Source: a virus. From it: 45,089 bases of DNA. How positions within the stretch are numbered: position 1 is the stretch's first letter; every line of letters begins with the position of its first letter. This document shows positions 6,564 through 38,960 of this stretch, one piece after another. A program made the position numbers and the translations under genes. The stretch spans positions 1 through 45,089 of the IMG/VR virus record IMGVR_UViG_3300027858_000001; one strand, 5' to 3'. The notes below the pieces were generated by a model. The model ran no database searches. It saw only the letters and a program-made list of their open reading frames with translations, and was not told where the DNA came from.

Positions 6564-9149
6564 TTATTGTAACAGATCCATCGCATCCAACGGGTTATAG
6601 TCCTTTTCACTGATATCTCTGTTACCAGGTATCGCATCCAGATGTCCTCGCTGCACCTCCAGTTTAGGCACCTCATACGCGAACGTTAATGCTAACGCGT
6701 CATACCAGTCGGGTGACTTGCCAATGCGTTTCTTGACCATATCCTTTGGCTCAATCTTCAACCGCGTGCGCTTGTCGAACAGATAATCCCTGTTGATTAG
6801 CTCTCTCTCCAGCATCTCATCATCCACGAGAGCGCCGCCATTGAGGATCCATGTTCTGAATCGAAACGCCATTTCAGATGCTTTATCTGCGAACTTCTTC
6901 TCATCGTCCGCCTTCCACCCGAATCCCACATCAACGCAGTGATATCCCAGCTGCCTCAGCCGATCCCCAATGGGACCGCCCATCGCCCCCACGTCGAGGA
7001 ACGTTACATTGGGTTTGTGCCGGTCCAGCAGCATCGTAATCTTGGCCACCACGTTCATCGAGTCACGAGAGGTCTCACCGCTGATGCGATACGTCTGGTC
7101 AGACTTAGCATCATGGCCACGCCTGAAAACGATCATACAGTCGTCATCACCGCCACGCGCAAGGTCAACCCCACATACCAGTGGGTCATCGCCTAGATAG
7201 TGTCCTGGACCCCTCTCCATCGCTTCCTTGATGGCATCGCCTGGTATGTACTGCATCTCCGACGCACTGGGGAACTGACCACGTACACGTACCTTGAAGA
7301 AATCAGAATCTTCACCGTAGTCCTCGGCCCATTCCTGAATCAAGTTCTTGTTGGTCATCTTGCATGTACGGCTGTCTATCTGGCGAGTGACCCACCGGTT
7401 GCTGTTGCGGTAGAACGCATCATGGAACTCGCCACTCTTTCGAGTAGGGTTACCGAAGAGGAAATGCATTGGCTCCCCATCAGTCTGGCCACCACGCGCC
7501 ACCTCGTAGATGACATCCGGCACAGCCGATGCCTCATCGAACAGGAACCACGGCGTAGACTCTGCTGCGTGCAAGCCTGCAAATGCCTCTGAGTTCTCTT
7601 CTCTACACGTTTGAGCATCCACCCGCCACTCCGCAGGCAGTCCCTTGTGAGCCAGGCTGGTAGCGGTCCACTCGAACCAGTGGCCAGTGATGCATCGGCG
7701 ATGCCATTTTGCCAGCTCAGACCACGTTTTAGTTTTCAGCTGCTCCCCGGTGTTCGCGGTGACCACACCCTTCGACCGGGGTCGTGTGCTCATGATGAAT
7801 AGTGCGATCCACGAGCTTAGGGCGCTGTTATGAGTGACGATGAAGTCGTTAGCCAGATACAGATGATCGGCTGCTGCCACCTCAATGCACATGCCGTATT
7901 TCATACCGATTGGCTCAATGGAGTCTATCCACCGCTTAGTATAGCGCGACTCTACCTTGTCGCCGAGCATCTTCCGCTTATATGTATGGGTGAAGGGGTT
8001 CCATGTGCCGCCAAAGTTGATGGTACAGCGGTGACAATCTTTCATGGGTTCAGATCGCACACCGTCCTTAACGTAGAACGTTTTCTTCGGTGTAGGGCAC
8101 ATCATCGCCTTGCCACCGAGCGAGCGCACCATCCAGATCAAATCCTCTACCAGGTGCTTGGAGGTGCTGCTATAACCGATGCTACCGGCTTTAGTGACCT
8201 CACCATCAGTGTCGAGCATACCGGCCACCAGATCACGTCTCACAGCCTCTGAGTTGTATTTGTACACATCCGCAATGAACTTGGTGTCACAGGTGACAGG
8301 AGCCATGCCGCAGTCCTTGAGCGCGGTATACAGGCCGGGGAGGGTGGCGCTTGCGAACCCCGTCTCCAAAAAAAGGTTAGTTTCCGTGTTGGGGTGGTAT
8401 TTCATTCTCCCCCATATCTCAGGCCGTGATGAACCGATGACACCTGATATGCTTGATCCATCCCCCAACCACACACCAACACGATACGCATCGTAATGCA
8501 TGCCGTTGTACGCAAACTGCACTGGGTCGCATGTGGGAATCTCCCATTGCCGCGCCATCGCTTTACCATTGGGACGCTTGACCCCCGCCTCCAATAGCTC
8601 CTGCGTCTCCATGACGCGCCACTTGTCGATGCCCTTACGCCGTTCCTGTCGGCCCTTGACTGCCCACTCATGCTCACCGGCGACATCGGTGGAACTGCCG
8701 TCATCGAATGTCACCTTGTAGAACTGCTTCCTGCATCCGCGAGTTCCGGTGATTCGCGTGGGTGTCCCATCCTTACCGAACACATAATCTCCGACCTTCA
8801 AATCGCCCCATTTAATATCTTCCATACCTATCGCCTCTTGGTTGTTTGAGGCGGAAACTATTACACGTTTTGCGTCTTGACACAACCTTTCTGCTTTCCC
8901 GGTGCCATGTCCTGAAGCAGTGGCAAATCGGATAGGTACCGTAGGAGTAAAGCCGTCGAACCCCCTGTCCCGGATCTCATGTCCCCACTCAATCAGGAAC
9001 TCTTTTTGCCATTCATCGGGTCCTGCCTGCCCTGACAGCTCGTCCACGCCCCAATCGAAGGCGAACATGACCCAACCATAGGGGTCACCGTAGAAGTCCC
9101 CCATAGCGTCCAGCAGAGAGATCTCAACCCCGAGCGCATCGGTAGTCAT
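6564..9149 (-). CDS. terL: Terminase large subunit, interrupted by an intein (861-aa precursor, 505-aa extein)
   Basis: ATGA coupling to terS. Walker A GHGTGK|S is restored after removing aa 86-441. Walker B-like FLFDEAS. The C-terminal nuclease-type region contains VCGVDLARGGDD. Confidence 0.85.
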   Translation of the reverse strand: MTTDALGVEISLLDAMGDFYGDPYGWVMFAFDWGVDELSGQAGPDEWQKEFLIEWGHEIRDRGFDGFTPTVPIRFATASGHGTGKAERLCQDAKRVIVSASNNQEAIGMEDIKWGDLKVGDYVFGKDGTPTRITGTRGCRKQFYKVTFDDGSSTDVAGEHEWAVKGRQERRKGIDKWRVMETQELLEAGVKRPNGKAMARQWEIPTCDPVQFAYNGMHYDAYRVGVWLGDGSSISGVIGSSRPEIWGRMKYHPNTETNLFLETGFASATLPGLYTALKDCGMAPVTCDTKFIADVYKYNSEAVRRDLVAGMLDTDGEVTKAGSIGYSSTSKHLVEDLIWMVRSLGGKAMMCPTPKKTFYVKDGVRSEPMKDCHRCTINFGGTWNPFTHTYKRKMLGDKVESRYTKRWIDSIEPIGMKYGMCIEVAAADHLYLANDFIVTHNSALSSWIALFIMSTRPRSKGVVTANTGEQLKTKTWSELAKWHRRCITGHWFEWTATSLAHKGLPAEWRVDAQTCREENSEAFAGLHAAESTPWFLFDEASAVPDVIYEVARGGQTDGEPMHFLFGNPTRKSGEFHDAFYRNSNRWVTRQIDSRTCKMTNKNLIQEWAEDYGEDSDFFKVRVRGQFPSASEMQYIPGDAIKEAMERGPGHYLGDDPLVCGVDLARGGDDDCMIVFRRGHDAKSDQTYRISGETSRDSMNVVAKITMLLDRHKPNVTFLDVGAMGGPIGDRLRQLGYHCVDVGFGWKADDEKKFADKASEMAFRFRTWILNGGALVDDEMLERELINRDYLFDKRTRLKIEPKDMVKKRIGKSPDWYDALALTFAYEVPKLEVQRGHLDAIPGNRDISEKDYNPLDAMDLLQ
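7827..8894 (-). mobile_element. Class 3 (WCT) intein with a LAGLIDADG homing-endonuclease domain in the TerL P-loop (356 aa)
   Basis: Boundaries are GTGK|AERL... and ...FIVTHN|S. Block B is GEHEW, block F is YGMCIEV and block G is VTHN. LAGLIDADG motifs are VGVWLGDGSS and LVAGMLDTDGEV. Codon positions were checked against the DNA. Confidence 0.8.
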
Positions 9150-20009: not shown

Positions 20010-22025
20010 ATGACACCTGATTTTATATTCGGTGTGACGCCGGGTGATGTCGTCTACGATATAGAGACATACCCTAACGTTTTCACCATGAAAGCACTAC
20101 ACCACACCACCCGGAAACGCTGGACGTTCGAGGTCAGTGAGCGTCGTAACGACCTGGATCTGATTGTTCAGTTCATGAACACGCTAGCAGCCAATCAATG
20201 CCGAATGGTTGGTTTCAATAACATCGGTTTCGATTACCCGGTCATCCACATGATTCACCAGACTGGTGGCGCGTGGATCACTGTTGAGAACATCTACGAA
20301 AAAGCAATGGGGATCATCCAAGGTAATCGGGCTGTTCATACGGTGTGGGAGTCTGGCGGGGTTGTTCATGCGGTGTGGGAGTCTGACTGGGCTGTCCCCC
20401 AGGTAGATCTATTCAAGATCCATCACTTTGACAACATGGCAAGGTCAACCAGTCTGAAAGCTCTGGAGTTCGCCATGCGGATGCCCCGCATAGAAGATCT
20501 ACCGTTCCCAGTCGGTAAGCCACTGACCCCTGACCAGATTGATCCGCTGCTCGAGTACAACGAGTACGATGTCGATGCTACCGATGACTTCCTGACCGAG
20601 ACTAAAGAGATGCTGGCGTTCAGGGAAGAGCTTGCTAAGGACTACGGCGACGACGCGTTCATCAACTACAACGACACCAAAATAGGTAAACAGATTTTCA
20701 TCCGCCGCCTTGAAGGTCACACCCCTGGGTCATGCTATCAACGCATCAATGGTCGCCGTGAGCCGGTCCAGACGATCAGGCAAAACATTAAACTCAATGA
20801 TGTGATACTACCTATGGTTAAGTTCACGCATCCAGAAACCAATCGGATCTTGGACTATTTTCAGCAGCAGGTGATCACCGAAACCAAAGGTGTGTTTAAA
20901 AATGTGAGTTGCTCCATCAACGGATTCCAACTCGATTTCGGTACGGGAGGGTTACACGGGTCAATCAGTAACACAACGGTCACCAGTGATGATGAGTGGA
21001 TCATAGAAGATTGGGATGTTGCCAGTTACTACCCGAACCTCGCAATCCAGAATAACTTGCGACCTGACCACCTCGGCGACCTGTTCTGTCACATCTACGC
21101 TGACATGTATGAGCAGCGTAAACAGCATGCCAAAGGGTCCACGCAGAATGCTGCGTTGAAGCTCGGTCTCAACGGTAGTTATGGTGACAGCAACAACCAG
21201 TATAGTCCGCTGTTCGATCCGCAGTTCACGATGGCAATCACCATCAATGGGCAGCTGTTATTGTGCATGTTGATCGAAGCGCTGATGGTTGATCAATCGG
21301 TGAAGATGGTGCAAGTGAACACCGACGGACTGACCATCAAGTACCCGCGCGAGATACAACCATGGGTGCATCTCGTCACCAAGTGGTGGGAAGGTGTCAC
21401 CCGGCTGACACTGGAAGTTGCTGAATATAAATCGATGTATATCCGTGATGTGAATAATTACATCGCTGTCTATACCGATGGCTCGATTAAACGCAAAGGT
21501 GCGTACGAGCACAACAAGGAATGGCATCAGGACCCTGGTGCTCTAATCGTACCTATCGCAGCGGAGAAGGTCCTTGTCAACGGCGAGGATGTCAGAGAAG
21601 TTATCTGCAGCCACCCTGACCCCTATGACTTCATGCTCAGGGGCAAGGCACCAGGTGGGTCACACCTACGATGGGGAACCATTCGACAGCAGAAGTTATG
21701 CCGGTATTACATCAGCACCGATGGTGATTACCTCGAAAAAGTCATGCCACCTAAAGGCCCGCCTGGAGAGTACAAGCGTGCCAACAGCCTGACCGATGAT
21801 TACTATAATAGTGTGATGGCTGAGATTGGTAATGGTGTATGGGATGAACGGATCCACACCAAAAACAAAAGCGTGTATGAGACCAGAGTGACCGGATTAC
21901 ACACCGTCAATACTGTTCAGATGGCGAATAACATGAATGAGATGACGTTCGGTGATATCGATTACGAGTGGTACATCGCTGAGACTGTGAAACTGACAAG
22001 TCCTATTATGAGTAACGTGATATGA
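20010..22025 (+). CDS. DNA polymerase with family B-type motifs and a 3'-5' exonuclease domain (671 aa)
   Basis: ExoI VYDIETYPN, ExoII GFNNIGFDYPVI, ExoIII EYNEYDVDAT. Polymerase motif A DVASYYPNLAI, motif B KLGLNGSYGDS, motif C VQVNTDGL. Confidence 0.8.
   Translation: MTPDFIFGVTPGDVVYDIETYPNVFTMKALHHTTRKRWTFEVSERRNDLDLIVQFMNTLAANQCRMVGFNNIGFDYPVIHMIHQTGGAWITVENIYEKAMGIIQGNRAVHTVWESGGVVHAVWESDWAVPQVDLFKIHHFDNMARSTSLKALEFAMRMPRIEDLPFPVGKPLTPDQIDPLLEYNEYDVDATDDFLTETKEMLAFREELAKDYGDDAFINYNDTKIGKQIFIRRLEGHTPGSCYQRINGRREPVQTIRQNIKLNDVILPMVKFTHPETNRILDYFQQQVITETKGVFKNVSCSINGFQLDFGTGGLHGSISNTTVTSDDEWIIEDWDVASYYPNLAIQNNLRPDHLGDLFCHIYADMYEQRKQHAKGSTQNAALKLGLNGSYGDSNNQYSPLFDPQFTMAITINGQLLLCMLIEALMVDQSVKMVQVNTDGLTIKYPREIQPWVHLVTKWWEGVTRLTLEVAEYKSMYIRDVNNYIAVYTDGSIKRKGAYEHNKEWHQDPGALIVPIAAEKVLVNGEDVREVICSHPDPYDFMLRGKAPGGSHLRWGTIRQQKLCRYYISTDGDYLEKVMPPKGPPGEYKRANSLTDDYYNSVMAEIGNGVWDERIHTKNKSVYETRVTGLHTVNTVQMANNMNEMTFGDIDYEWYIAETVKLTSPIMSNVI
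20331..20390. repeat. In-frame 30-bp tandem duplication (26 of 30 identical) in the polymerase exonuclease domain
   Basis: Copies at 20331-20360 and 20361-20390 encode AVHTVWESGG and VVHAVWESDW. Confidence 0.9.
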
Positions 22026-22035
22026 GCACTTACTG

Positions 22036-22338
22036 ATGGGTGTCCGAGAGAATAAAGTGGAGACGTACCTGACCGATGAGGTCAGGAAACTGGGAGGCGA
22101 TACCCGTAAGTGGGTGTGCCCTGACCACAGCGGTGTGCCCGATAGAATTGTGGGGGTACCGGGGATCTCCCCTGTATTCGTTGAAGTGAAGACCGTGGAC
22201 GGCCAGTTACTACCAAGCCAGATACGAGAACTCCCACGACTCAGAGATGGTATGGGCCTTGAGGTGGTCACGGTATACGGACACTATCAAGTTGATCTCC
22301 TGATCATAGAACTAAAGGAACGATTAAATAATGCTTAA
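22036..22338 (+). CDS. VRR-NUC domain nuclease (100 aa)
   Basis: The SGVPDRIVG...VFVEVKTVDGQLLPSQ block matches the VRR-NUC catalytic core. Confidence 0.75.
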   Translation: MGVRENKVETYLTDEVRKLGGDTRKWVCPDHSGVPDRIVGVPGISPVFVEVKTVDGQLLPSQIRELPRLRDGMGLEVVTVYGHYQVDLLIIELKERLNNA

Positions 22339-24817
22339 CCCTGGCGACCTGTACGACTACCAAAAAGAGGCGGTGCTCCACCAGCTGTACAACCCTGAGA
22401 CAATGCTCTGGTTGCAAATGGGCCTGGGCAAAGAGCAACCGAACTCCGAACCATTGCTGACCCCCGACGGGTGGCGACCCCTCGGTGACATCGTACCCGG
22501 TGATAGTGTCATCGGTGCTAACGGTGAGCCGACCGAAGTGCTGAGAGTGTACCCGCAAGGGGATAAAGAAGTGGTCACTATTACCTTCGGTGACGGCACG
22601 TTCGCCCGGTGCGGGTGGGACCATCTATGGAACGTTAAGACGAACCACGATGTGATGTCAGGGAAACCGTGGAGGGTGATGACTACACGCGCAATCGTTG
22701 ATTCAGGGTTGGACCAAGGTAGTAACAGTAAATACCTGATACCAATCTGTAAGCCGGTGACCTACTCCCATCGCGACCTACCGGTGGATCCTTACTTACT
22801 GGGGGTCATCCTTGGCGACGGCACCGTATCAGAGGCGAGCGGCATAGTCATCTGCACCGATACCGAAATCGTGACTAAATGTGGAGCGTCATCTATCAAG
22901 CTGCATGAGACCTCTGCATATACCAGCTATGGGTACATCTCCCAAATCAAACAGCACATGCGTGATCTTAATTTGATGGGTAAGCGTAGCTGGGAAAAGC
23001 ATTTACCGGGAGAATACCTGCGAGCATCAATCAACCAACGGTTGTCGGTGTTACAGGGGTTACTAGACACCGACGGATCCCCCATGAAATCGGGAGGAGT
23101 GGAGTTCTGTTCCACCAGTGAGGATCTTGCGGACGCGGTGGTTGACCTGACCCAATCGCTCGGAGGGATCGCTCGCAAATCAGGTCCCAGGGTTACCCGT
23201 CATCAGGGTGGGCTAGGGCACCCGTCGTTCAGGGTTAATGTCAAACTGCCGCTAGATTTCATCCCGTTCACCTTAGCTCGAAAATTGGTACGATGGGTCC
23301 GCCCTACGAAGTACCAACCACATCGCCGCATACGGTCTATCAAGGTGACCGGCCACGAAGCGTCCACCTGCATCAGTGTTGCTGCTCCTGATAATTTATA
23401 CCTGACCCGTAACCATGTGGTCACTCACAATACCCCGATCACCCTGACAACCATTGTGGACCGTATGCGCGCCGGTCAAGTACAAAAGACCTTGGTGTTC
23501 GGTCCATTGAGAGTTATCCACGCAGTGTGGGAGAGAGAAGCCCGTAAGTGGGATCACACCCGGCACCTACGATTCAGTGTGGTCCACGGCAATAAAGCTA
23601 AACGACACCGTGCGCTGTTCCTGGACGCAGACGTATACCTGACCAACTATGAGAACATGAATTGGATCGCAGAATATTTAGACCACTATTACACCCAGCA
23701 AAACAAGCCGTTACCGTTCCAAATGGTTGTCTACGATGAAGTCTCTAAACTCAAGAACGCCACATCGTTGAGAATGAAAGGGGGCAACCGCGACCGTAAA
23801 AACAAACGCGGAGAATACACCCCGGTGAAGTACACCGGTTGGAGAAAGATCATACCTCACATCCCATACCGCACGGGGTTAACTGGCACCCCCGCAAGCA
23901 ATGGTTATCTGGATCTTCACGGGCAATACCTCGCGGTGGATAACGGTGATCGTTTAGGGACCGGGATCACTCGGTTCAAAGATTTGTATTTTGAGTCTGA
24001 CTATAACGGGTGGACTTATACTCCCACTGAAACCGGTCGTGCGATGATCGAACAGCGTATCCATGACATCACAATTAAAATGGATACCAAGGACTATTTG
24101 ACGCTACCGCCTACTACTTATACCAACATGATGGTGGATCTGCCGCCGAAAGCACGCAAGGCATACGATCAGATTGAAGCGGACATGTTCACCCAGCTGG
24201 ACTCAGGCAACGCGATCGAGCTGTTTACTAAAAACACTATCTCGAATAAATGCCTGCAATTCTGCAACGGCGGTGTTTACCTTGTCGCGGGAGAGTCCGA
24301 GTGGGAAGCAGTTCACGACGCCAAGCTGGAAGCGCTGGACGAAGTGATCGAGGAGGCAGCCGGTCAGCCGGTGCTATGCGGTTACTCGTTTAAATCAGAC
24401 GCTGCCAGGATCATGGCCAGATATAAGCGGATGCACCCGGTTAACTTAACCGCCATGCCAGCGAGTAAGACTCCAGGAATCATCGATAAGTGGAACCGGG
24501 GCGAGATTAAACTCCTGATCGGCCACCCTGCTTCTATCGGCCACGGTGTCGATGGTCTGCAGGATAGCGGGAGCATCCTTGCATGGTTTGGTCTACCGTG
24601 GTCATTAGAGCATTACCTGCAGATGAACCAACGACTAGACCGCAACGGACAGAAACATCCGGTATCAGTCATCAGGATACTCTGTAACAATACAGTCGAC
24701 CTGGCGGTAGCGGATGCACTGGAACGCAAGGCAGATGATGAGGATGGACTCAAGTCCGCACTAGAACGCTACCGTAAAGGGATCACCACCAATGACCTTG
24801 AGGTCAACTTTTATTAA
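22331..24817 (+). CDS. SNF2/DEAD-like helicase, interrupted by an intein (828-aa precursor, 495-aa extein)
   Basis: DYQKEAV. Walker A MGLGK|T is restored after removing aa 35-367. Also YDEVSKLKN (DExx box) and C-terminal QMNQRLDRNGQ (motif VI-like). Confidence 0.85.
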   Translation: MLNPGDLYDYQKEAVLHQLYNPETMLWLQMGLGKEQPNSEPLLTPDGWRPLGDIVPGDSVIGANGEPTEVLRVYPQGDKEVVTITFGDGTFARCGWDHLWNVKTNHDVMSGKPWRVMTTRAIVDSGLDQGSNSKYLIPICKPVTYSHRDLPVDPYLLGVILGDGTVSEASGIVICTDTEIVTKCGASSIKLHETSAYTSYGYISQIKQHMRDLNLMGKRSWEKHLPGEYLRASINQRLSVLQGLLDTDGSPMKSGGVEFCSTSEDLADAVVDLTQSLGGIARKSGPRVTRHQGGLGHPSFRVNVKLPLDFIPFTLARKLVRWVRPTKYQPHRRIRSIKVTGHEASTCISVAAPDNLYLTRNHVVTHNTPITLTTIVDRMRAGQVQKTLVFGPLRVIHAVWEREARKWDHTRHLRFSVVHGNKAKRHRALFLDADVYLTNYENMNWIAEYLDHYYTQQNKPLPFQMVVYDEVSKLKNATSLRMKGGNRDRKNKRGEYTPVKYTGWRKIIPHIPYRTGLTGTPASNGYLDLHGQYLAVDNGDRLGTGITRFKDLYFESDYNGWTYTPTETGRAMIEQRIHDITIKMDTKDYLTLPPTTYTNMMVDLPPKARKAYDQIEADMFTQLDSGNAIELFTKNTISNKCLQFCNGGVYLVAGESEWEAVHDAKLEALDEVIEEAAGQPVLCGYSFKSDAARIMARYKRMHPVNLTAMPASKTPGIIDKWNRGEIKLLIGHPASIGHGVDGLQDSGSILAWFGLPWSLEHYLQMNQRLDRNGQKHPVSVIRILCNNTVDLAVADALERKADDEDGLKSALERYRKGITTNDLEVNFY
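22433..23431 (+). mobile_element. Class 3 (WCT) intein with a LAGLIDADG domain in the SNF2 helicase P-loop (333 aa)
   Basis: Boundaries are GLGK|EQPN... and ...HVVTHN|T. Block B is WDHLW, block F is STCISV and block G is VTHN. LAGLIDADG motifs are LLGVILGDGTV and VLQGLLDTDGSP. Codon positions were checked against the DNA. Confidence 0.8.
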
Positions 24818-25059
24818 TAGTTGCGTACCGGCGACAGGCGCATTGTGGCGGTGCCGGTTAGCTGCACCCTGATGGGCATCATCGATAAAACCATAGTGCC
24901 GTCACTGTCTGCAGAAAAAGTGCCCTCAATCATGTCCTGGAAGTTGCCATCACCGTCGCCTATCTCCATGGTAATGGTGCCGGTGCCGACATTGGCGCGG
25001 TATTGGTACTCACCGGATTTAGGGGTTATCGCCACGTTATGCTGCATGTTTAAGTTCAT
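24814..25059 (-). CDS. Small beta-rich protein, last gene of the late arm (81 aa)
   Basis: ATGA overlap with the upstream gene. Its stop overlaps the SNF2 stop on the opposite strand. Confidence 0.5.
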   Translation of the reverse strand: MNLNMQHNVAITPKSGEYQYRANVGTGTITMEIGDGDGNFQDMIEGTFSADSDGTMVLSMMPIRVQLTGTATMRLSPVRNY

Positions 25060-26177
25060 CGTATAGTCCTTGGCGTTAGTGATCCTGACATAATAGTGCC
25101 CGGTATTATACTACTTGTGTCTGTTATTGGTATGGCAAACGCAGCAGGATCAACTAAATTAGCCTGCTCTGCTTCTATATATTCTTGGGGCAAGACAAAT
25201 TTTCCGCCCCTAACTTCCCCCATTCGACCTTCGTATCTTCTATACGAATCATTATTATAGTAAGCACCAATCCTAAAAGCAGCGTCTCCTACAATTCCGG
25301 TCGTGTTGTTGAGCGTCACGTCTGATACTTCTACAACGCCATGAACATAACTACGCACGTAAGGAGCAGCCCTGTCCCATACTGCGTGCATTAGCGTCGT
25401 CTCACCAGCTGTAACGCCTGACCCAGCCAGCTCATCGGCGGTGACTGTTTCTAAGACTTTAAAACGGCCATTTGATTGAAACTGAACATAATTCTGAGAC
25501 GTTCCACTATCCCAATTCCCAAACAGAGCGGTGTTTGACGAAACAACATCGGCATTCTGCAGGCACGACATAGTAACGTCGGCCAAATCCAAAGCGCTTA
25601 TTGACCCTGAGATTGTCAACGCATGTAGCAACGATGAGAACTCAAGCCAGCTTGCCCCGTAAGGGTGCCCCGCAGTTGTTCCAGAGATTGAAGTCCCTGT
25701 GGTAAGGCTGGCATTGTAACCGTTCCCTGTAACGTCCTCGAATTCGCCCGCAGTACCATTACCGCTTGCCTCTGTTAGTGGGAGAACGAACTCCCAGTCT
25801 TGGTAGACTTCGTTATAACCGAAGGCCGCCCCCGGCGCTGGTTGTGTCTCCCCTGCCATGTTGTACCAGATATAGAACTCATTATCGGAAACGTCGCTTA
25901 GCGTAGGCAGATATACCTTTATCTCGCAATCCCGCAATGCTTCTATGGGATTAGTTACGAACCGTCTAACATGGCAAGCAAGTCTTGTGGCCCCTAAATC
26001 ATCAGACGAAAATCTTATATCTCCGCCACCATTTAACGCCGAGTGACTACTGCCGTTAGCGACCTCGTTTAAAAGGTTGTCGAGCGTTATTGTCACGACA
26101 AACCCTGTCAAGGCAGCGTTTATCTTGCTGCTAGGGATGGTGATTTTATGGCTTCGCCAGCCAACGGGGAACGCCAT
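25056..26177 (-). CDS. Putative receptor-binding or tail-appendage protein, DUF2341-like N-terminus plus LamG/ConA-like lectin domain (373 aa)
   Basis: The N-terminus (WRSHKITIPSSKINAALTGFVVTITL...GGDIRFSS...YIWYN) resembles DUF2341. The C-terminal half resembles LamG-type domains. Late-arm position. Confidence 0.45.
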   Translation of the reverse strand: MAFPVGWRSHKITIPSSKINAALTGFVVTITLDNLLNEVANGSSHSALNGGGDIRFSSDDLGATRLACHVRRFVTNPIEALRDCEIKVYLPTLSDVSDNEFYIWYNMAGETQPAPGAAFGYNEVYQDWEFVLPLTEASGNGTAGEFEDVTGNGYNASLTTGTSISGTTAGHPYGASWLEFSSLLHALTISGSISALDLADVTMSCLQNADVVSSNTALFGNWDSGTSQNYVQFQSNGRFKVLETVTADELAGSGVTAGETTLMHAVWDRAAPYVRSYVHGVVEVSDVTLNNTTGIVGDAAFRIGAYYNNDSYRRYEGRMGEVRGGKFVLPQEYIEAEQANLVDPAAFAIPITDTSSIIPGTIMSGSLTPRTIR

Positions 26178-30968: not shown

Positions 30969-33900
30969 TTATTTACGCTCTGGTCCGAATAGGAATGAGT
31001 GCATGCTGGCGTCTTCACCTTCCACGAGAACGTCGTACAAGTGCTCCCCCGTGGCCCATGCCTGATTAACACCGGGGACGCCTACAGCAGCCCCGACAAA
31101 TTTACTGGAACCCTTCACCTGCCCCTTCGTGATATCTTCATCGGTGAACCCTCGTTTAACCAGTTCAGGTATTGACATGGTGCCTTGCTCAAGAACAGCA
31201 GCCAATGGTGTCATATTGTAACCGAATTCCCCTACCGATGCTGACGCCACATCACGGATGAAGGGGATCGACTGTGCAGGGAATAACGCCGTGTTGGTCA
31301 ACATCCGTTGTAATCGATCATCATCATCTTCAGGTTCTCCGAGTTCACCACGCATCATCATCTCGAATAACACCGGTATGGTGAATAGAAACATCGCTTT
31401 AGATGCCACGTTGGTGGTTGAGTATCTCCCCGATTTAGCCCCTTTCACAAGGTCCCTCTCCATGTTCCATAACGAACTGAAAAAGGTCATAAACATCGTG
31501 AGCATCCGGCCAGTCTCTGCTTGACCGCGCATGATCCTCGCCATATTCATGGTCGAGCCGGACCCCTGAACATTCTCGATAACCCAGTCCGCGTGTTGAT
31601 ATGCGCGCTTCTGATCTCCGTGCTCGCTCATCGACTTGATATACGCCGCGTGCCATGTGGGTACATCCACCATGTAAGTCTGGATCAACATGATGTGCTT
31701 CATCGATGTTTCTTGTGCTGCCTTCAGAAACGGTAGATTGCCTACCGTATTGAACGCATCCTTAACTTTCCGACCGGTCTTAATGTCCGCCGAGCTGGTG
31801 ATATTCGCCATCGCGTTCTTTATCTCACGGTCCATCGTGGTCGTGCGGTGCTTCATCACTTTGGAGTTTTCCATCGCGAAATCCAGCGAGTCTTTCATAC
31901 TGGCGGGACTCTTCAAGATACTACGCAATGCCTGGTAGACGGGCCCTATCCCCAGCTCAGCGATGGAGTTGGACAACCCTGATATCTGGATGATCCCCGT
32001 AGACGCCTTGAACCCCATCACACCAAGGGTGGTGCCGAAACGCAGTCGACCTAGTATATCGTCCCAGAACATTTTCACAGGCGCCTCACGGCCATCCTTG
32101 GCGATGTCATTGAGCCACGGCGACAGCTGTGCATACTCTTCTGGACCGAGCTTCGCACTGATGGCTTTAGCAACCCTGGAGTCATTGATCAGCTTATTAA
32201 CTTCACGAACGGTGTCGTGATGCGTGATGTAGTGAATGGTCTCCTGGAAGTGCGACGGCACCACATCCAGGCTCAACCGGATAGCATCATAAGCCCCTGT
32301 CCGCTCACTGGTAGCACTAGCAGTGACCGACGCCTGAATGCTACTGGTAGAACTGAACATTGATTCAGTTTGGGCATCCCGCCGATCTTCATTGAGCTTA
32401 GCTTTCTGTGATTGTTTGGGGTCATATTTGACCGGGTAGTACCCGCCGCGATACTCACCGAAAGGAGTGACCACCGGTACTGCTTCCACTTTCGGTGGAG
32501 CCAGTCCAGTGGTACGACGATGCACCTCTGCCAGTTGCGGGTACAGTTCGTCCATCTTGTCCCAAATTAGCTGCACCATATCCCAATCGCTTTTGGTCAT
32601 GTGCGCCAGGATCGCTTGTAACTGGGGATTATCGAGGGTAATCGACGCGTCCACATCGGGGTCAGCCCACTGTTCACCAAGTAACATCTTACGCAGGTTC
32701 CCCGTGTTACCAGTGTTCAGTGCCACTGCGAGCACCTGATGACCGAAGAGGTTATCCTCGATCTCAGGGATATACAGTTTCTGGTTGTGCCGTTTGATAT
32801 CTGCTTTACTGCGGTTCTGAATGGCGTTCATAACGTCTACGCCGGTCTGGTCCCACAACGCCTGTTCACTGTCATAGGCGTCAACGAACCCCTGAACCAA
32901 TATCTGATGGCTAATACCTGTGCGCTCTCCACCATCTAACCAGCTGGCCATGAAGGGGATCTTGGTCATCTGAGCCATCATCCAACGACCCCAGTGGGCA
33001 CCCTCAACAACAGTGGTACGACTGGTGCTGAACTTATCGTCAGACGCCTCATCCATGCTGTCCACCCAATTAGTGACCAGTTTGTCGAATGTGATCTGAT
33101 CCTCTAACCGGGTGATCTTGTTTGAATACCGTGCAACGTGTTCGATGTTCTTCAATGATTCGTCGACACCTTTCAGCGCTGCCGACGGCACCTCCTTCCA
33201 GTGGGTCACGTAAAGCTCATCGAGTACCTCGGGCGTGAGCACCAACCCTTCACCGTGAACCTCCATTCGGTCCTTGGCCCACATTGCGATGTTTTCGTTT
33301 TCCTTATCCACCGCCTTCAGGGTGGCGGATTTGCGGAATTCAAAGCGGTTCAGGATCTTGACGATCTGCCCCCAATGACCGCCGTCTGCTTTCATGATCT
33401 CTTCGCGAACAGATTTTTTAGAGTACCGAGCGACACGATCCACAATACCCTCGGTGGTTTCACGAGCTTTGGTCGCTTCCATCCCCAGGTAGTAATTCAC
33501 CACCTGGCGGCGTTTAGCTTCCATCGCCCCTTCCTTATTCCCCTCAGCGAGCATACGTGCAGACTCTTGAGCTGCGCGGATCTCCGCCTTGCGATACTTA
33601 CCGGGGTGAGTCTCACGGTACGACAGCTTGCCTATGCGCTCCTCTGCCACCGCCTTGATGGTAGCCCGATCAACCGTGGGGGTGCGTGACTGCCTAGCAA
33701 GTGCTTTCAGCTCTTTGAGTAGCAGCTTACCGCGTTCCTCGTTCATCACTGCAGCGTCTGCACGCGCTTCGAGGGTGCCATCGGTCATCACATCACCGTG
33801 ACGTTCCAGCATGATCTGCTGCGCCCGTGCGTCGGCTGCGTGTTCTATCTTCGGTGCGTTGATGAGTTCGCCCAACATCTCTGACCCGGAAGTGAACCCG

Positions 33901-36900
33901 AGCAGCCCTGCAGCTTCATCAGGGTGCAACCCTATACCACCCTTGGCAGTCATGCCTCGCAGCGGCGGCGGGATCGACACTGATTTACGACCGAGCTTGT
34001 CGACCTTCTCCTCGCTAACCTGGTCCTTCACCGTAGCGTGATCCAACTTGATGTCACCGTCGCGCAGGGTTGTCCGTGCGCGGTATACCGGCTCATCGCC
34101 AAGTGCGACCATCTGCTCATCAATGATGTCCTGCTTTTCCTCTTTCCACCATTCTTTAGTTTGATTGGTCAAGTGTCGGAGCATCTCATCACGCAGCGTC
34201 TCGGTCTGCTTGTCCTTGGTCTGTTCGACCTGCTGCTGGTACGCGTGGAACTCCTCCTCGGTCATACCCGCCATCGTCGCATCGGTGAACATTGGCTCGT
34301 GCTGTGCCCGTGTCTCTGCTGCTGCGATCTGCTCCTCTGTTGCCAGCAACCGGTCGAACACCTCACGCATCTCGGCGTCGAGATTGACGTTCAGCTTGCC
34401 CCGGAGCGACCGGTAGAGCTGGGTCAGCCATCGAGCGAACGTGCGGAACACGTTACGCAGCTCTACCGATGGGGCCTTGCCTTCCATCAGATAGGTCTCG
34501 AATCCCCGTGCGAACTGCTCATGCGCTGCCCGGCGAATCGCTGTATCCTTTGCCGGGTTGCCAGTGGTAGTCTGATCCAGGAACGCGACCACATCGTCTT
34601 CAGTGATGGGGCCATCTTTACGAGTGGAGCCTGCTTCTTGCCCCAGCACCTCAGTCGTATCACCCAGGTGTGTGTTAGCTTCTTTCGCAACATCGGCAGC
34701 GTTACGCTTGAACCACTCGTTGATGGTTTGTACGGTATCGCTACCAGTCTTCAGCTCCATCTCATACATGAAGTGAGCGAACTCGTGAACAAACGTGGAC
34801 AGATCCGCAGCCTCGGTCAACCGGATCACCGAGGTAGCAGGGTCGAAGGTGCCTCGTGTGTTCTGAAACAACAGTTGCGTCTGCTCTGCTGTAACTTGTT
34901 GGCGAGTTTTACCTTTACCGCTGGGATCGTACACTCTGATTTTCAGTCCAGCATCCTTCAGAACTTGCTTTGCTTCACTGGATAGACCGCGAGGTACTAC
35001 TGCCGTGTGAAACTCACTGAAACTCACTGGTCGTTGTATTTTAGTTTCAAAATAACTGGTTGGCAGTGCTACAAGGTACTCCGTTAAATCGTTGATCACT
35101 TGCCATGTTTCGGGGGTCATGTCGAACGTTTCAAGCACTTCTCTACGTCCACCCATTATCGCGGTGCCGGCGTCGTCGGCGTACCCCCACGACGACGCGT
35201 CGAATTTATAAAACGGTTTTAGTTTGTCGAGAGCATCCATGAACACCGTTTGGGATTCATCCTTAACCTTGGTCAGTTCCTCTTCAGTGATGATTTGGTC
35301 GCGGCGAGCCTGCACTTGCTTGATCGTTTTCATCTCGTTAGCGTATGCCGACCTGACGGATCCCGCACCGTAAAACGATGCCTCGCCGCCTTGCAACTTC
35401 TGCGTCATCGCTTTCACCACGTTGGTGAGGTTGTAATCCACGTACTTTCTGTTGCCGCTGGGGGTAAACCCTTTGAACAGCTTTTTACTCTTGACCATGC
35501 TGTTAAACTGATCAGTCGCCCATTGGTCGTACGCATCGCGTGTCTTTTTAACCCGCATCTTCTTATCGATGTCTGCTCGCAGCTGATGGGTATCGACCGC
35601 GCCGTGCTGCTTGAACCGGCGAACCTCTGCCTCGAAACCACGCAAATTACTGTCCTGGACTTCCCCTTCCTCCGTGAACCAGAGGTCAGCGTATCGCTCA
35701 GCTCGATCTGGACTCGCCTCTTCAGCATTTTTCAATATAGCGGTGTAATGTTGTTTCGCTATTTTCCGAAACTTATCACTACGAGAATCCGCGACATCTA
35801 GCTTTGCTGCTTTCCGAACTGTCGAACTGATCTTCTTGTTCTTCGGTTTGGGTGCTTTGTTTTGTTGTTGAAGCCATAAATACTGTGCTGCCGTAGATCG
35901 CTGAAAGCTCTCCGCTCCCCCTTGGCCCTCCATCGAGTCGATATCAAGATCATCCAGGTCCAGGTGTCGAAGCTCTCTTAACTGAAGGTTGATTTCATTG
36001 AACTTGTCGAGATCGATATCATAGGTCGCCCGAGGTTGACGAGGACTGTAAATGTCACTATCAAAAGTGCGCGCACGTTCAGAGTTGAGAATCGACGGAT
36101 CGGCTAGTAATGACACCTCACCGAACGACGTGAACTCTCCTTTATCAGTGCGAAGAGTAGCAAGGGATGGTGCCGCTAACCCACCCAAATCCGCTGCAGC
36201 CAGTATGTTCTCTGCGGACAGGTTATGTGTGACGATAAGGTTTTCATCTACAGACTGAGCCAGTAGATTAGCGGACCCGCTCTCATCAGGGTCAAACGCT
36301 GCATTGACTGATCGGGCATTCGACGCGTCATATATAGCAGTGTTAAGAACATCTGCCTCTTTAACCACGAATGAGTCATACCCGAGGCTGCGGATCGCTG
36401 CCTGCACAGGCAAGCTCTCCACGGTCTCCCAGTTTTCCATCGCTTCGTTGTCCGACATTTCAACGATCGTGTCCTTGGCTTGAGTAGCAGCATCGCCCTG
36501 GTCAACGCCTGTTTTCACCAGCTCATCGGTCAACGCCTGCTCAAACGCGGTGCTCTCCGACTCACTCCAGTCCAACGGATTGAACCGCTTCTCGTTCCTC
36601 AGTATCACCGGGTAGACGGTCGGTGACACCTCATCGCTTGCCTCCCCTCGCTGTTGAGAGAAGATGGTGGCGAACGCGCTCTCCGGCGTGAAAAACGTAT
36701 ACCCGCGCCCATGCCCCGCTTTACTCGGTTTGAACTCGTTAATGTCCCCGGTAGTGGCACCGTGATACATGATCGTGTTGGTGTCAAACCCCATCTCAGC
36801 GGCCCGCGTCATGCGGCCCTCTTGAGACATGTCCAGACCTTTATCCGCAGCGTTTATCCACTCACGGCCTTCACCGATGTCAACGCCTTCGTACCCTTCA

Positions 36901-38960
36901 GCGGCGGCCTGTTCGAGTACCTCCCCCTCTGCGATGGCGTCAGCCCTACCGGTCTGTGGCCCTTCAACGGTAAGCCCTGATTGAGTGTAAGCCTCTGTGA
37001 TCGAGATCCCGTTCTTCTTAGCATGAACAGTCGCCCACGCAGGTAAGAGCTGCGCCATCACCCCCGCGTTTTTAGGGGTGACCATACCGGTGTCGACCAG
37101 TTGACCCTTGAGCGACTCGTACATCTCCTGCGCTTCAACGTACGCGCTGGCATCTTTGCTGGCATCTTCGATCAGCGCATCAACAAACTTCTCGTGCTCT
37201 TTTGTTGCCTGCTCCTGACGAAGCGGTGAGATGGCGTCAGGGTCCATGGTCATACCCGGGCGCAGCGCATCGAAGTGCTCCGTGCCGCTGATCTCTGATG
37301 CAAATTTCTCAGTCGGAACCACGACATCGATATCCAGTACCGCCGCTTCCCGCGCCTGTTTCTGCAATAACTGTAACGCGGCATCCGATGCTATTTCATC
37401 CGCCGTCTTGCCTTGCAGATAAGTAGCTACCTGTTCACCGTCGATGTAAACGTTCTCGTTACCTTCACCGGTCACCCCGGAGACGAACTCCTCGAACTTA
37501 CCCTTGTTCCGTGCTTTCAACTTGTCGTTGGCAACGGCTGCGTTCAGTGAATCGATTTTCTTCTGGTCGATCTCGTTCAGTTCTTTTCTGCGATTAGCAT
37601 CCGACCGAGCGTGAATCGCTGTACCAATGCCACCAGGGATGATAGACGCCTGGAATCCTGTGACCGCTGCCTCGGCAACCCTGGGCACTGCCTCGGCCAT
37701 GTTGTCGAATACCTGCTCGAAGTCGTGATCGGTGAACGCACCATCGTCCATGAGCTTGACCACTTCCCCCATGCTCACGTTGGTGAACTCCTGGAACCCC
37801 TCGGTCGCACCTTCAACGAATAGCGCGCCGGCATACCGCCGACCTAACCGCTTCATCGCCTGTCGGCCTGTCTCGGTTCCAAGCGCTTCCATGACTTTCT
37901 TGCGGATCTTCGACTTCATCATCGGGTTGAACTTGCCACCGACCGCACCCATCGTCCCGCCGATCGCTGCGATACCGAGTGACTCCGCTGCAGCGTTAAT
38001 AACGCCCACCACTAGCGCACCGTACCCGGCAAGCTCAGGGTCTATGACATTACCATCGTCATCGGTCAGCGCTGCCAACTCGTTAAAGGCGATGCCTGAC
38101 TCAAGATCGAACGCGCCCTTAGCCGTTCCCACGCGAGCGCCGACACGAACCCCTACCGCTGCCCCTGCTATCGCGCCAGGAAGCGCCCCTGCCCCTGCAG
38201 CGGTCGCGCCAACTGCGGCACCGATCGCCCCGCCGGTGACACCACCACCTGCACCGAACTTAATCGACTCGGTGAAGATGTCTCCCATGATGGGTAGCAT
38301 CTCGGTAGTTGCCAGAGGCGTGTTCAGTATCGGACCGAAGTCTTCAATGGGGGACGCCATCTCCTCCTCGATCTCGCGCAGGCGTGCAACCTGGTCCTCG
38401 GTTAACGGATCCCCCATGCTGATGGAGTTCCACATCCCCACCTGACCCAAACGTGACGACTCTACCGCTAACTGGCCATGACCGAACGAATCCTTGACGG
38501 CCTGTCCGTAATCTTTGACATCATCGACCACCTCACCTGCCGTTTTCAAGGTGTCCTCAATGATCTGCATGACATCTATATCATCTTGAGCAATGATCGC
38601 ATTGTCGAAGTTGCTGACAAACTTAGCAGTGCCAGGACTCTTCTCAGTCATGGAGTCAAAGTCAACCTGGTCCAGCTTCAGCTTTTGCTCCATCGCTTCT
38701 GAGTCAGCTTCCACCGCGATCATCGGAGCGCCGGTCGCCGCACTGAGGTTCATCTTCTTGGCGTGCGCGTCGGGATCAACTTTGACTGCTTCACTGAAGT
38801 TCGCAATCTGACGGACCGGGTCAACCCCCGGCGCGGTTGTTGTTCCTATGTCCAGTGGTGCCAGATCCAGCGGAACGGGTGGTGCCACCCCTTCATCGAG
38901 TGGTTTTTCTTTGGCGATACCGAAAGCGCCGAAATCAACGTTCTCTAAATTTAATTCCAT
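30969..38960 (-). CDS. Giant internal virion/ejection protein with polyvalent-protein features (2663 aa)
   Basis: Continuous 7,992-nt ORF in the T7 gp16-equivalent position. Gly/Ala zipper-like hydrophobic region at aa 235-345 (37926-38258). MYHGATTGDINEFKPS...GYTFFTPESAF lies near aa 731 (about 36700-36770). HEFAH is at aa 1392 (34773-34787), followed by AHEQFARGFETYL. Hydrophobic C-terminal segments. Confidence 0.8.
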   Translation of the reverse strand: MELNLENVDFGAFGIAKEKPLDEGVAPPVPLDLAPLDIGTTTAPGVDPVRQIANFSEAVKVDPDAHAKKMNLSAATGAPMIAVEADSEAMEQKLKLDQVDFDSMTEKSPGTAKFVSNFDNAIIAQDDIDVMQIIEDTLKTAGEVVDDVKDYGQAVKDSFGHGQLAVESSRLGQVGMWNSISMGDPLTEDQVARLREIEEEMASPIEDFGPILNTPLATTEMLPIMGDIFTESIKFGAGGGVTGGAIGAAVGATAAGAGALPGAIAGAAVGVRVGARVGTAKGAFDLESGIAFNELAALTDDDGNVIDPELAGYGALVVGVINAAAESLGIAAIGGTMGAVGGKFNPMMKSKIRKKVMEALGTETGRQAMKRLGRRYAGALFVEGATEGFQEFTNVSMGEVVKLMDDGAFTDHDFEQVFDNMAEAVPRVAEAAVTGFQASIIPGGIGTAIHARSDANRRKELNEIDQKKIDSLNAAVANDKLKARNKGKFEEFVSGVTGEGNENVYIDGEQVATYLQGKTADEIASDAALQLLQKQAREAAVLDIDVVVPTEKFASEISGTEHFDALRPGMTMDPDAISPLRQEQATKEHEKFVDALIEDASKDASAYVEAQEMYESLKGQLVDTGMVTPKNAGVMAQLLPAWATVHAKKNGISITEAYTQSGLTVEGPQTGRADAIAEGEVLEQAAAEGYEGVDIGEGREWINAADKGLDMSQEGRMTRAAEMGFDTNTIMYHGATTGDINEFKPSKAGHGRGYTFFTPESAFATIFSQQRGEASDEVSPTVYPVILRNEKRFNPLDWSESESTAFEQALTDELVKTGVDQGDAATQAKDTIVEMSDNEAMENWETVESLPVQAAIRSLGYDSFVVKEADVLNTAIYDASNARSVNAAFDPDESGSANLLAQSVDENLIVTHNLSAENILAAADLGGLAAPSLATLRTDKGEFTSFGEVSLLADPSILNSERARTFDSDIYSPRQPRATYDIDLDKFNEINLQLRELRHLDLDDLDIDSMEGQGGAESFQRSTAAQYLWLQQQNKAPKPKNKKISSTVRKAAKLDVADSRSDKFRKIAKQHYTAILKNAEEASPDRAERYADLWFTEEGEVQDSNLRGFEAEVRRFKQHGAVDTHQLRADIDKKMRVKKTRDAYDQWATDQFNSMVKSKKLFKGFTPSGNRKYVDYNLTNVVKAMTQKLQGGEASFYGAGSVRSAYANEMKTIKQVQARRDQIITEEELTKVKDESQTVFMDALDKLKPFYKFDASSWGYADDAGTAIMGGRREVLETFDMTPETWQVINDLTEYLVALPTSYFETKIQRPVSFSEFHTAVVPRGLSSEAKQVLKDAGLKIRVYDPSGKGKTRQQVTAEQTQLLFQNTRGTFDPATSVIRLTEAADLSTFVHEFAHFMYEMELKTGSDTVQTINEWFKRNAADVAKEANTHLGDTTEVLGQEAGSTRKDGPITEDDVVAFLDQTTTGNPAKDTAIRRAAHEQFARGFETYLMEGKAPSVELRNVFRTFARWLTQLYRSLRGKLNVNLDAEMREVFDRLLATEEQIAAAETRAQHEPMFTDATMAGMTEEEFHAYQQQVEQTKDKQTETLRDEMLRHLTNQTKEWWKEEKQDIIDEQMVALGDEPVYRARTTLRDGDIKLDHATVKDQVSEEKVDKLGRKSVSIPPPLRGMTAKGGIGLHPDEAAGLLGFTSGSEMLGELINAPKIEHAADARAQQIMLERHGDVMTDGTLEARADAAVMNEERGKLLLKELKALARQSRTPTVDRATIKAVAEERIGKLSYRETHPGKYRKAEIRAAQESARMLAEGNKEGAMEAKRRQVVNYYLGMEATKARETTEGIVDRVARYSKKSVREEIMKADGGHWGQIVKILNRFEFRKSATLKAVDKENENIAMWAKDRMEVHGEGLVLTPEVLDELYVTHWKEVPSAALKGVDESLKNIEHVARYSNKITRLEDQITFDKLVTNWVDSMDEASDDKFSTSRTTVVEGAHWGRWMMAQMTKIPFMASWLDGGERTGISHQILVQGFVDAYDSEQALWDQTGVDVMNAIQNRSKADIKRHNQKLYIPEIEDNLFGHQVLAVALNTGNTGNLRKMLLGEQWADPDVDASITLDNPQLQAILAHMTKSDWDMVQLIWDKMDELYPQLAEVHRRTTGLAPPKVEAVPVVTPFGEYRGGYYPVKYDPKQSQKAKLNEDRRDAQTESMFSSTSSIQASVTASATSERTGAYDAIRLSLDVVPSHFQETIHYITHHDTVREVNKLINDSRVAKAISAKLGPEEYAQLSPWLNDIAKDGREAPVKMFWDDILGRLRFGTTLGVMGFKASTGIIQISGLSNSIAELGIGPVYQALRSILKSPASMKDSLDFAMENSKVMKHRTTTMDREIKNAMANITSSADIKTGRKVKDAFNTVGNLPFLKAAQETSMKHIMLIQTYMVDVPTWHAAYIKSMSEHGDQKRAYQHADWVIENVQGSGSTMNMARIMRGQAETGRMLTMFMTFFSSLWNMERDLVKGAKSGRYSTTNVASKAMFLFTIPVLFEMMMRGELGEPEDDDDRLQRMLTNTALFPAQSIPFIRDVASASVGEFGYNMTPLAAVLEQGTMSIPELVKRGFTDEDITKGQVKGSSKFVGAAVGVPGVNQAWATGEHLYDVLVEGEDASMHSFLFGPERK

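Follow-up and report, generated by a model that had tools for sequence, protein, structure and literature searches.

A probable bifunctional class 3 intein with a LAGLIDADG endonuclease in motif I of a podophage SNF2-family helicase

In the 45,089-nucleotide viral sequence IMGVR_UViG_3300027858_000001 of IMG/VR, which was analyzed over its full length and is called the window below, the open reading frame (ORF) for an SNF2-family helicase is interrupted within its P-loop by 333 codons. This raises the question of what the insert is and whether the gene can still give rise to an intact helicase. An original prediction, made from the sequence without database searches, had placed a class 3 LAGLIDADG intein at 22433–23431, and both these exact coordinates and all the motifs that it quoted were borne out by our analysis. 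Based on sequence comparisons and a predicted fold, we consider it very probable that the 999-nucleotide (nt) insert is a bifunctional class 3 intein with a LAGLIDADG endonuclease, located in motif I of the SNF2 helicase of a podophage.

The insert comprises residues E35 to N367 of the precursor and lies in frame between the Lys and the Thr of motif I (GLGK/T, where a slash marks a junction). The ORF reads MLNPGDLYDYQKEAVLHQLYNPETMLWLQMGLGK / EQPNSEPLLTPDGW ... LYLTRNHVVTHN / TPITLTTIVDRMRAGQV..., with WLQMGLGK/ and /TPITLTTIV at the two junctions. All 828 codons of the precursor are intact in a single continuous frame with no internal stop or start signal. ORFs of 61–106 amino acids (aa) occur on the minus strand within the region, and the plus-strand frame is continuous and conserved over the whole insert. 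In the precursor, the Pfam SNF2-rel_dom match lies solely 3′ of the insert (residues 380–483), and the Helicase_C match is weak. A foreign base composition was rejected as a mark of the element, because its GC content (53.9%) is close to those of the exteins (51.3%) and the window (52.3%) and is not distinctive.

The boundaries of the insert were examined with the 495-aa protein spliced in silico (residues 35–367 removed) as the query, and 3,657 helicase homologues were found at E ≤ 1e-10. Nearly all of the best 120 of these 3,657 were 494–500 aa long and 68–77% identical to the query, with 100% query coverage; the spliced protein, in which GLGKT is restored by excision as had been predicted, thus aligns end to end with intein-free homologues. 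When aligned, these homologues read ...SMLWLQMGLGKTPITLTTIVDRMRAGQV, i.e., ...MLWLQMGLGK-TPITLTTIV... with an empty site, and give exactly the proposed boundary with motif I intact. The closest cultured phages were podoviruses with approximately 70% identity: Vibrio phages MZH0603, 1.021.A/B/C, 1.185.O, and PS25B.1, and Yersinia phage fEV-1. In the DNA of four of them (Vibrio MZH0603, 1.021.A, and PS25B.1, and Yersinia fEV-1), the site is also empty, and an uninterrupted ...GGxAAR/ACxCCxATCAC... is found precisely where the window holds the 999 nt. Because the intein-free homologues and these four cultured phages show the empty site, both ends of the intein are set to the residue. Relatives were apparent at the protein level only (about 70% identity in the helicase), and a megablast search of positions 21000–26000 against phage genomes gave no match.

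Splicing in silico raised the SNF2-rel_dom score from 43.9 to 56.6 bits (E 2.9e-15), with a match that now spans motif I; Helicase_C was matched as well, and ResIII and DEAD were newly matched. Furthermore, DMGLGKTLQTI of the Sulfolobus SNF2/Rad54 helicase in the Protein Data Bank (PDB; 1Z63) aligned with QMGLGKTPITL across the junction. By sequence, the host is an SNF2-family helicase, with an SNF2-related N-lobe, motif I of the form GxGKT, and a Helicase_C lobe. Two other boundaries were rejected. If the intein started at Ser5, EQPN would stay inside GLGK-T, which is seen in no homologue; if the boundary were shifted by one residue, it would conflict with the C-terminal end, which must be HN/T, and with the homologues, which have GLGK directly before TPITL. 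According to these alignments, the intein starts at Glu35 with Lys−1 and Thr+1 on either side, and its N-terminal boundary is settled. The predicted peptide across the spliced junction is ...LQMGLGKTPITLTTIV..., and a longer form, TMLWLQMGLGKTPITLTTIV, spans GK-TP. Since trypsin cuts after the junction Lys (K/T), a tryptic junction peptide is unsuitable, and Glu-C, Asp-N, or chymotrypsin is needed. The intein-less DNA site, which is the predicted target sequence of the endonuclease, is GGTTGCAAATGGGCCTGGGCAAA/ACCCCGATCACCCTGACAACC.

The defining features of a class 3 intein are a residue 1 that is not a nucleophile, a WCT triplet, and Ser or Thr at +1; the host proteins are DnaB, RecG, SNF2, and TerL, and most of the insertions lie in P-loops (PMC2807308). 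We counted the conservation of the corresponding positions in 58 complete aligned relatives of the intein (coordinates in Table 1). The predicted WCT signature was retained almost throughout: the Trp at B:12 in all 58, the Cys at F:4 in 55, and the Thr at G:5 in 57. Similarly, the B:10 His was present in 57 of the 58, the G:6 His in 58, and the G:7 Asn in 54. The element ends in THN/T (23423..23434), i.e., a C-terminal His-Asn pair followed by the +1 Thr (23432..23434). Every class 3 feature that can be tested by sequence (residue 1, WCT, the B:10 His, the +1 residue, and relatedness) is therefore present. A class 1 intein was rejected because residue 1 is Glu and not Cys, Ser, or Thr, and a class 2 (KlbA-type) intein was rejected because the WCT triplet is there. 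Class 3 inteins are reported as monophyletic, and the relatives of the SNF2 intein include P-loop inteins of PhoH, DnaB, TerL, and SNF2 proteins.

Hint-domain similarity was found both by sequence, against the PDB, and in the predicted fold. The best phmmer matches in the PDB were the class 3 inteins MchDnaB1 (6RIX/6RIY) and Msm DnaBi1 (6BS8), with E values of 8e-8 to 3e-7; after these class 3 DnaB inteins came the gp41-1 intein and, weakly and in the middle part, PI-SceI. In the alignments, HLW of block B corresponds to HQW (AAHQW in MchDnaB1), TCISV of block F to RCVEV (VRCVEV in class 3 DnaB inteins), and VTHN to PTHN. The AlphaFold2 model of the intein, built with 53 aligned relatives, had a mean pLDDT of 95.7 and a pTM of 0.93. 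Foldseek against the PDB ranked PI-SceI first for the whole molecule (E 1e-17, TMq 0.69–0.76), together with TliVMA, PhoVMA, and PI-PfuI, whereas the Hint part alone matched class 3 mini-inteins (TMt ~0.8), and the endonuclease part matched the PI-SceI endonuclease domain, I-DmoI, and I-Tsp061I. In the model, a LAGLIDADG endonuclease with two motifs interrupts a Hint domain, whose fold is formed by the N-terminal segment, with blocks A and B, and the C-terminal segment, with blocks F and G.

Table 1. Coordinates of the helicase precursor, the predicted intein, and its motifs in the window.
Feature	Position	Strand	Basis or remark
SNF2-family helicase precursor ORF hosting the intein	22331..24817	+	828 aa plus stop; Pfam SNF2-rel_dom and Helicase_C matches
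N-extein, 34 aa; its final residues, MGLGK, begin helicase motif I / Walker A	22331..22432	+	Homologues; 1Z63
Predicted class 3 intein with embedded LAGLIDADG endonuclease domain; 333 aa, E1..N333	22433..23431	+	
Block A (EQPNSEPLLTPDGW)	22433..22474	+	Sequence; residue 1 Glu, non-nucleophile; relatives share xQPxSEPxLTPxGW
Block B, GWDHLW, intein residues 61–66	22613..22630	+	His64 = B:10; Trp66 = B:12 (W of WCT)
LAGLIDADG homing endonuclease domain, about residues 106–290	22748..23302	+	Pfam, conservation, fold
LAGLIDADG motif 1, LLGVILGDGTV, residues 122–132	22796..22828	+	Asp129
LAGLIDADG motif 2, VLQGLLDTDGSP, residues 206–217	23048..23083	+	Asp214
Block F, STCISV, residues 311–316	23363..23380	+	Cys313 = F:4, predicted class 3 nucleophile
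Block G, VVTHN, residues 329–333, then C-extein Thr+1	23417..23434	+	Thr331 = G:5, then His332, Asn333
C-extein, 461 aa plus stop, rest of the helicase from the Thr of GLGKT	23432..24817	+	

We also analyzed the family to which the intein belongs. An exhaustive phmmer search with the intein yielded 18,358 representative proteins at E ≤ 0.001, of which 5,401 remained at E ≤ 1e-30, and tblastn gave 854 matches in cultured phages, the best of which was 41.9% identical. Together with the PDB and Pfam matches, this size of the family shows that the motifs did not arise by chance. The closest relative, 59% identical, lies at the same site in protein P0121 (MLWLQMGLGK/EQPDSEP...VVTHN/TPITLTSIV), which is encoded on the JGI metagenome contig L001 (JGI 3300000352), where the order of the replication genes is as in the window. 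The helicase gene of that contig (7943..10430) is split by a frameshift just past ...SKLKN, which is possibly a sequencing error, and a gene with an RVT_1 reverse-transcriptase domain near the contig end (17204..18163) is possibly part of a diversity-generating retroelement. Between the window intein and that of L001, pN/pS was 0.36 for Hint-N, 0.37 for the endonuclease, and 0.27 for Hint-C, with synonymous sites saturated. The scarcity of non-synonymous relative to synonymous differences in all three parts is what a functional element would show and suggests purifying selection.

The two LAGLIDADG motifs that had been predicted are both present, with the Asp kept in each, and Pfam LAGLIDADG_3 matched the insert at 29.9 bits, above its gathering score of 22.5 (E 7e-7). 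In an alignment of 53 sequences, D212, D214, and G215 do not vary at all, and G128, D129, and G130 hardly vary. The catalytic acidic residue is kept in both motifs, Asp129 in GDG and Asp214 in DTDG, so that the active site of the endonuclease, as read from the sequence, looks intact. Inteins at the same site were found in a handful of proteins (P0121, P0123, P0133, and P0138, and the representatives P0243, P0254, and P0255), compared with the thousands of helicase homologues found with the spliced query, and related inteins follow the Walker A Lys in unrelated NTPases: SNF2, DnaC-like, PhoH, thymidine kinase, DnaB, and TerL proteins. This patchy presence, a handful against thousands of empty homologues, and the many unrelated Walker A hosts support mobility of the element. 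Its sporadic distribution at a conserved site and the purifying selection on the endonuclease part are indirect signs of possible homing, i.e., cleavage of the intein-less allele.

A Glu at position 1 had been regarded as unusual even for a class 3 intein, and the exact N-terminal boundary had been questioned for that reason. Residues were counted in 178 full-length intein copies in the best 148 proteins of the phmmer search. Position 1 was Ala in 89 copies, Gln in 19, Pro in 19, Met in 12, Leu in 9, Gly in 9, and Glu in 6, and the rest had Ser (4), Arg (3), Cys (3), Phe (2), Asp (2), or His (1). Lys stood at position −1 in 138 copies, and position +1 was Thr in 136, Ser in 40, and Cys in 2. 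Glu1 was thus found in 2 of the 58 inteins of the close set and 6 of the 178 of the wider set (about 3%); it is uncommon, as had been claimed, but not unique, since P0121 has it at the same site, and the doubt about the N-terminal boundary was resolved by the homologues. Among the other same-site inteins, residue 1 is Leu in P0138, Ala in P0123 and P0254, and Gln in P0243; in P0255, where the context is similar (MLxLxMGLGK), it is also Glu. Block A of the relatives has the form xQPxSEPxLTPxGW, with A, Q, P, M, L, G, or E at position 1, and position 1 varies freely among non-nucleophiles in the family; Glu1 is one base change from the common Gln1. By these comparisons, Glu1 is a minority but recurrent state that occurs in independent lineages, and the boundary is not in doubt.

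Several points weigh against a functional class 3 intein at this locus. First, Pfam Intein_splicing and Hint and NCBIfam intein_Nterm and intein_Cterm gave no significant match in this intein; we do not regard these missing matches to generic hidden Markov models as evidence against an intein here. Second, position 7 of block B is Gly, compared with Asp or Ser in the class 3 inteins that have been studied, and this position varies over the family of 58 relatives. Third, protein splicing, a branched intermediate at block F, and cleavage of DNA are predictions from the sequence. Finally, an inactive class 3-like intein is documented, Arsp-FB24 Arth_1007 (PMC3196547). This precedent also favors the sole rival that carries some weight, which we nevertheless consider unlikely: that the insert is a decayed, non-splicing relic of an intein and that the helicase gene is a pseudogene or encodes a precursor with another role. 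Glu1 and the Gly at B:7 are minority residues, which speaks for a relic, but Glu1 recurs in independent lineages, the long ORF is intact, and every catalytic position is kept (H64, W66, C313, T331, H332, N333, and T+1). Furthermore, all three parts of the intein appear to be under purifying selection relative to L001, and the exteins are full length and 68–77% identical to intein-free helicases, compared with exteins of 66 aa in Arth_1007.

A functional intein might instead use a class 1 or class 2 route, either from a shifted Ser or Cys start or by direct attack of Thr+1, with Cys313 being non-essential. We consider this very unlikely: Ser5 is close to the N terminus, and some WCT-bearing inteins have Ser1 or Cys1 (PMC2807308), but a start at Ser5 would leave EQPN in the P-loop, as described above, the known class 2 (KlbA) inteins have no WCT triplet (PMC2807308), which is present here, and the nearest relatives with solved structures belong to class 3. 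Least probable of all is a free-standing or intron-encoded LAGLIDADG endonuclease gene fused in frame without protein splicing, because, although LAGLIDADG_3 is the only Pfam match in the insert, segments with a Hint fold that match solved inteins lie on both flanks, the termini bear the intein blocks A and G, and the ORF is continuous, without internal signals.

For the bifunctional class 3 intein that we favor, both class 3 splicing and DNA cleavage are inferred from the sequence. After translation, the Walker A loop would be split in the precursor and no P-loop would be formed, so the precursor is expected to be ATPase-dead, a view already put forward for inteins in the P-loops of DnaB and RadA (PMC6195587). 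Cys313 (F:4), activated by His64, Trp66, and Thr331, would attack the Lys34–Glu35 bond to give a block F branched thioester, Thr+1 would take over the N-extein, Asn333 would cyclize and release the intein, and an O-to-N shift would yield ...GLGKTPITL... and an intact helicase. This scheme is drawn by analogy from the class 3 mechanism known for the DnaB intein of Bethlehem (PMC2807308) and for later class 3 inteins (PMC5222942, PMC7664689). Once released, the intein, or just its endonuclease domain, would cleave alleles that lack the insert in the conserved coding sequence of motif I, and the element would thereby home during co-infection; we propose that homing of this kind accounts for its sporadic presence among otherwise collinear helicases.

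This intein of the SNF2 replication helicase and a second class 3 P-loop intein, in the terminase large subunit (TerL), could also act as conditional post-translational switches of the ~45-kb podophage, with oxidative or metal stress in the host pausing replication and packaging together, and Glu1 might in addition tune the reactivity of the N-terminal junction, e.g., through pH dependence; we regard this proposal as improbable. Such a joint stress response is conceivable because both inteins rely on a catalytic cysteine, and DnaBi1, a class 3 intein in a P-loop, was demonstrated to be a conditional switch in M. smegmatis (PMC6195587).

The insertion site is also of a known type: for Kelley et al. 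2016 (PMC5050341), K/T is the “classic” insertion in a P-loop, and their work covers class 3 inteins in the TerL and helicase genes of mycobacteriophages. Since class 3 inteins are already published in SNF2, DnaB, and TerL, the phage SNF2 intein is another case of a known kind, and the result is solid but commonplace in phage biology. The best match in a cultured phage was the helicase intein of the mycobacteriophages of cluster C1 (Alice gp175), at 41.9% identity over the whole intein. It likewise has a LAGLIDADG domain, HLW in block B, and a CI motif in block F, and it follows the Walker A Lys (SGSGK/AEPVSEPVLTPTGW...LTHN/S, starting AEPVSEP), whereas it has Ala1 rather than Glu1 and Ser+1 rather than Thr+1 and belongs to a different, larger helicase (980 aa) of an actinophage myovirus. 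The cluster C1 helicase intein may belong to “HEL,” the class that Kelley et al. 2016 set up for inteins of HepA-related helicases. In gp233 of Pseudomonas phage PhiPA3, also an SNF2 helicase, an intein follows the Walker A Lys (AAGTGK/AQPLTS...FIVTHN/T) and has WCT and LAGLIDADG motifs, but it is 34.7% identical to ours, has Ala1, and lies in a jumbo-phage host protein of 1057 aa. The Snf2 intein of Deinococcus radiodurans, in an SNF2-family protein of a bacterial host, is reportedly also class 3.

Other known inteins resemble the element in part. The DnaB intein of mycobacteriophage Bethlehem, the class 3 prototype (PMC2807308), shares a non-nucleophilic residue 1, WCT, Thr+1, an embedded endonuclease (341 aa), and a phage helicase host, but has Pro1 and Gln−1, and its host is of the DnaB and not the SNF2 type. 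Msm DnaBi1 (6BS8) and MchDnaB1 (6RIX/6RIY) are also inserted in a P-loop, and their H65/W67 correspond to H64/W66 here; unlike the window intein, they are mini-inteins without an endonuclease domain, with Ala1 and a bacterial DnaB host. PI-SceI (the Sce VMA1 intein) has the closest overall fold, with Hint and a two-motif LAGLIDADG endonuclease, but it is a eukaryotic class 1 intein (Cys1, Cys+1) with an extra DNA-recognition region and ~16% identity.

The TerL intein of the window (7827..8894, minus strand; 356 aa, AERLCQDAK...NDFIVTHN) lies in the TerL ORF (6564..9149, minus strand) between the Lys and the Ser of the Walker A loop, ASGHGTGK/.../SALSSW; the TerL of Vibrio phage MZH0603 reads ASGHGIGK-SAFTAM, without an insert. 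Its block A region is approximately 12 residues longer than that of the SNF2 intein. The idea that the SNF2 intein is a recent copy of the TerL intein was rejected on their 29% identity; the SNF2 intein is 36–59% identical to inteins in other SNF2, DnaC-like, and PhoH proteins. Two sister helicases, P0101 (813 aa) and P0074 (806 aa), which are about 70% identical to the window helicase, have inserts of class 1 type at two further conserved sites, equivalent to the window positions after ...SNKCLQF and after ...LLIGHPA. These inserts read CLAEGTEVL...FIAHN/C and CLHPSTQVL...FISHN/S, and no LAGLIDADG match was found in either. Because P0101 and P0074 bear inserts elsewhere, the helicase family has been invaded at three or more sites. 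Furthermore, related class 3 inteins are present in two to five copies in many representative proteins, e.g., P0246 (1896 aa). In P0273, two inteins (156–508 and 509–844) directly adjoin each other back to back, ...YIVTHN/CTTEDTPVKTKYGW..., and the +1 residue of the first is Cys1 of the second.

Two other ORFs of the window were also noted. The 100-aa ORF at 22036..22338 (plus strand) shares its last 8 nt with the helicase start and matches phrog_93, an endonuclease family in PHROG (E 3e-17), and, weakly, a Holliday-junction resolvase; L001 has a 100-aa gene at the same position, and the product looks like a small nuclease in a conserved pair with the helicase gene. The only match of the 2663-aa ORF at 30969..38960 (minus strand) was phrog_9880, a PHROG family of unknown function (E 4e-290). 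At this position, MZH0603 carries a 5.7-kb gene for a “coil containing protein,” and the product possibly serves this group of podophages as an internal virion protein or an ejection protein.

The finding has consequences for annotation. In PHROG, the intein by itself matches profiles labeled as terminase large subunit, DnaC-like helicase loader, and DNA primase. RefSeq tags several intein-bearing phage genes as “DarB-like antirestriction,” and one of these, gene 2 of Mycobacterium phage Phrappuccino, is a terminase in GenBank; the shared intein sequence appears to mislead functional annotation. If the intein in the window is not recognized, the P-loop seems broken and the gene seems twice its real size. 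We recommend that the annotation give the helicase as a precursor that contains an intein at residues 35–367 and has a mature form of 495 aa. For phage biology, the locus provides a clean added example of phages as reservoirs of class 3 inteins aimed at Walker A loops, and this example combines Glu1 and Thr+1 at a K/T junction, a second intein in TerL, and sister helicases with class 1-type inteins at two other sites.

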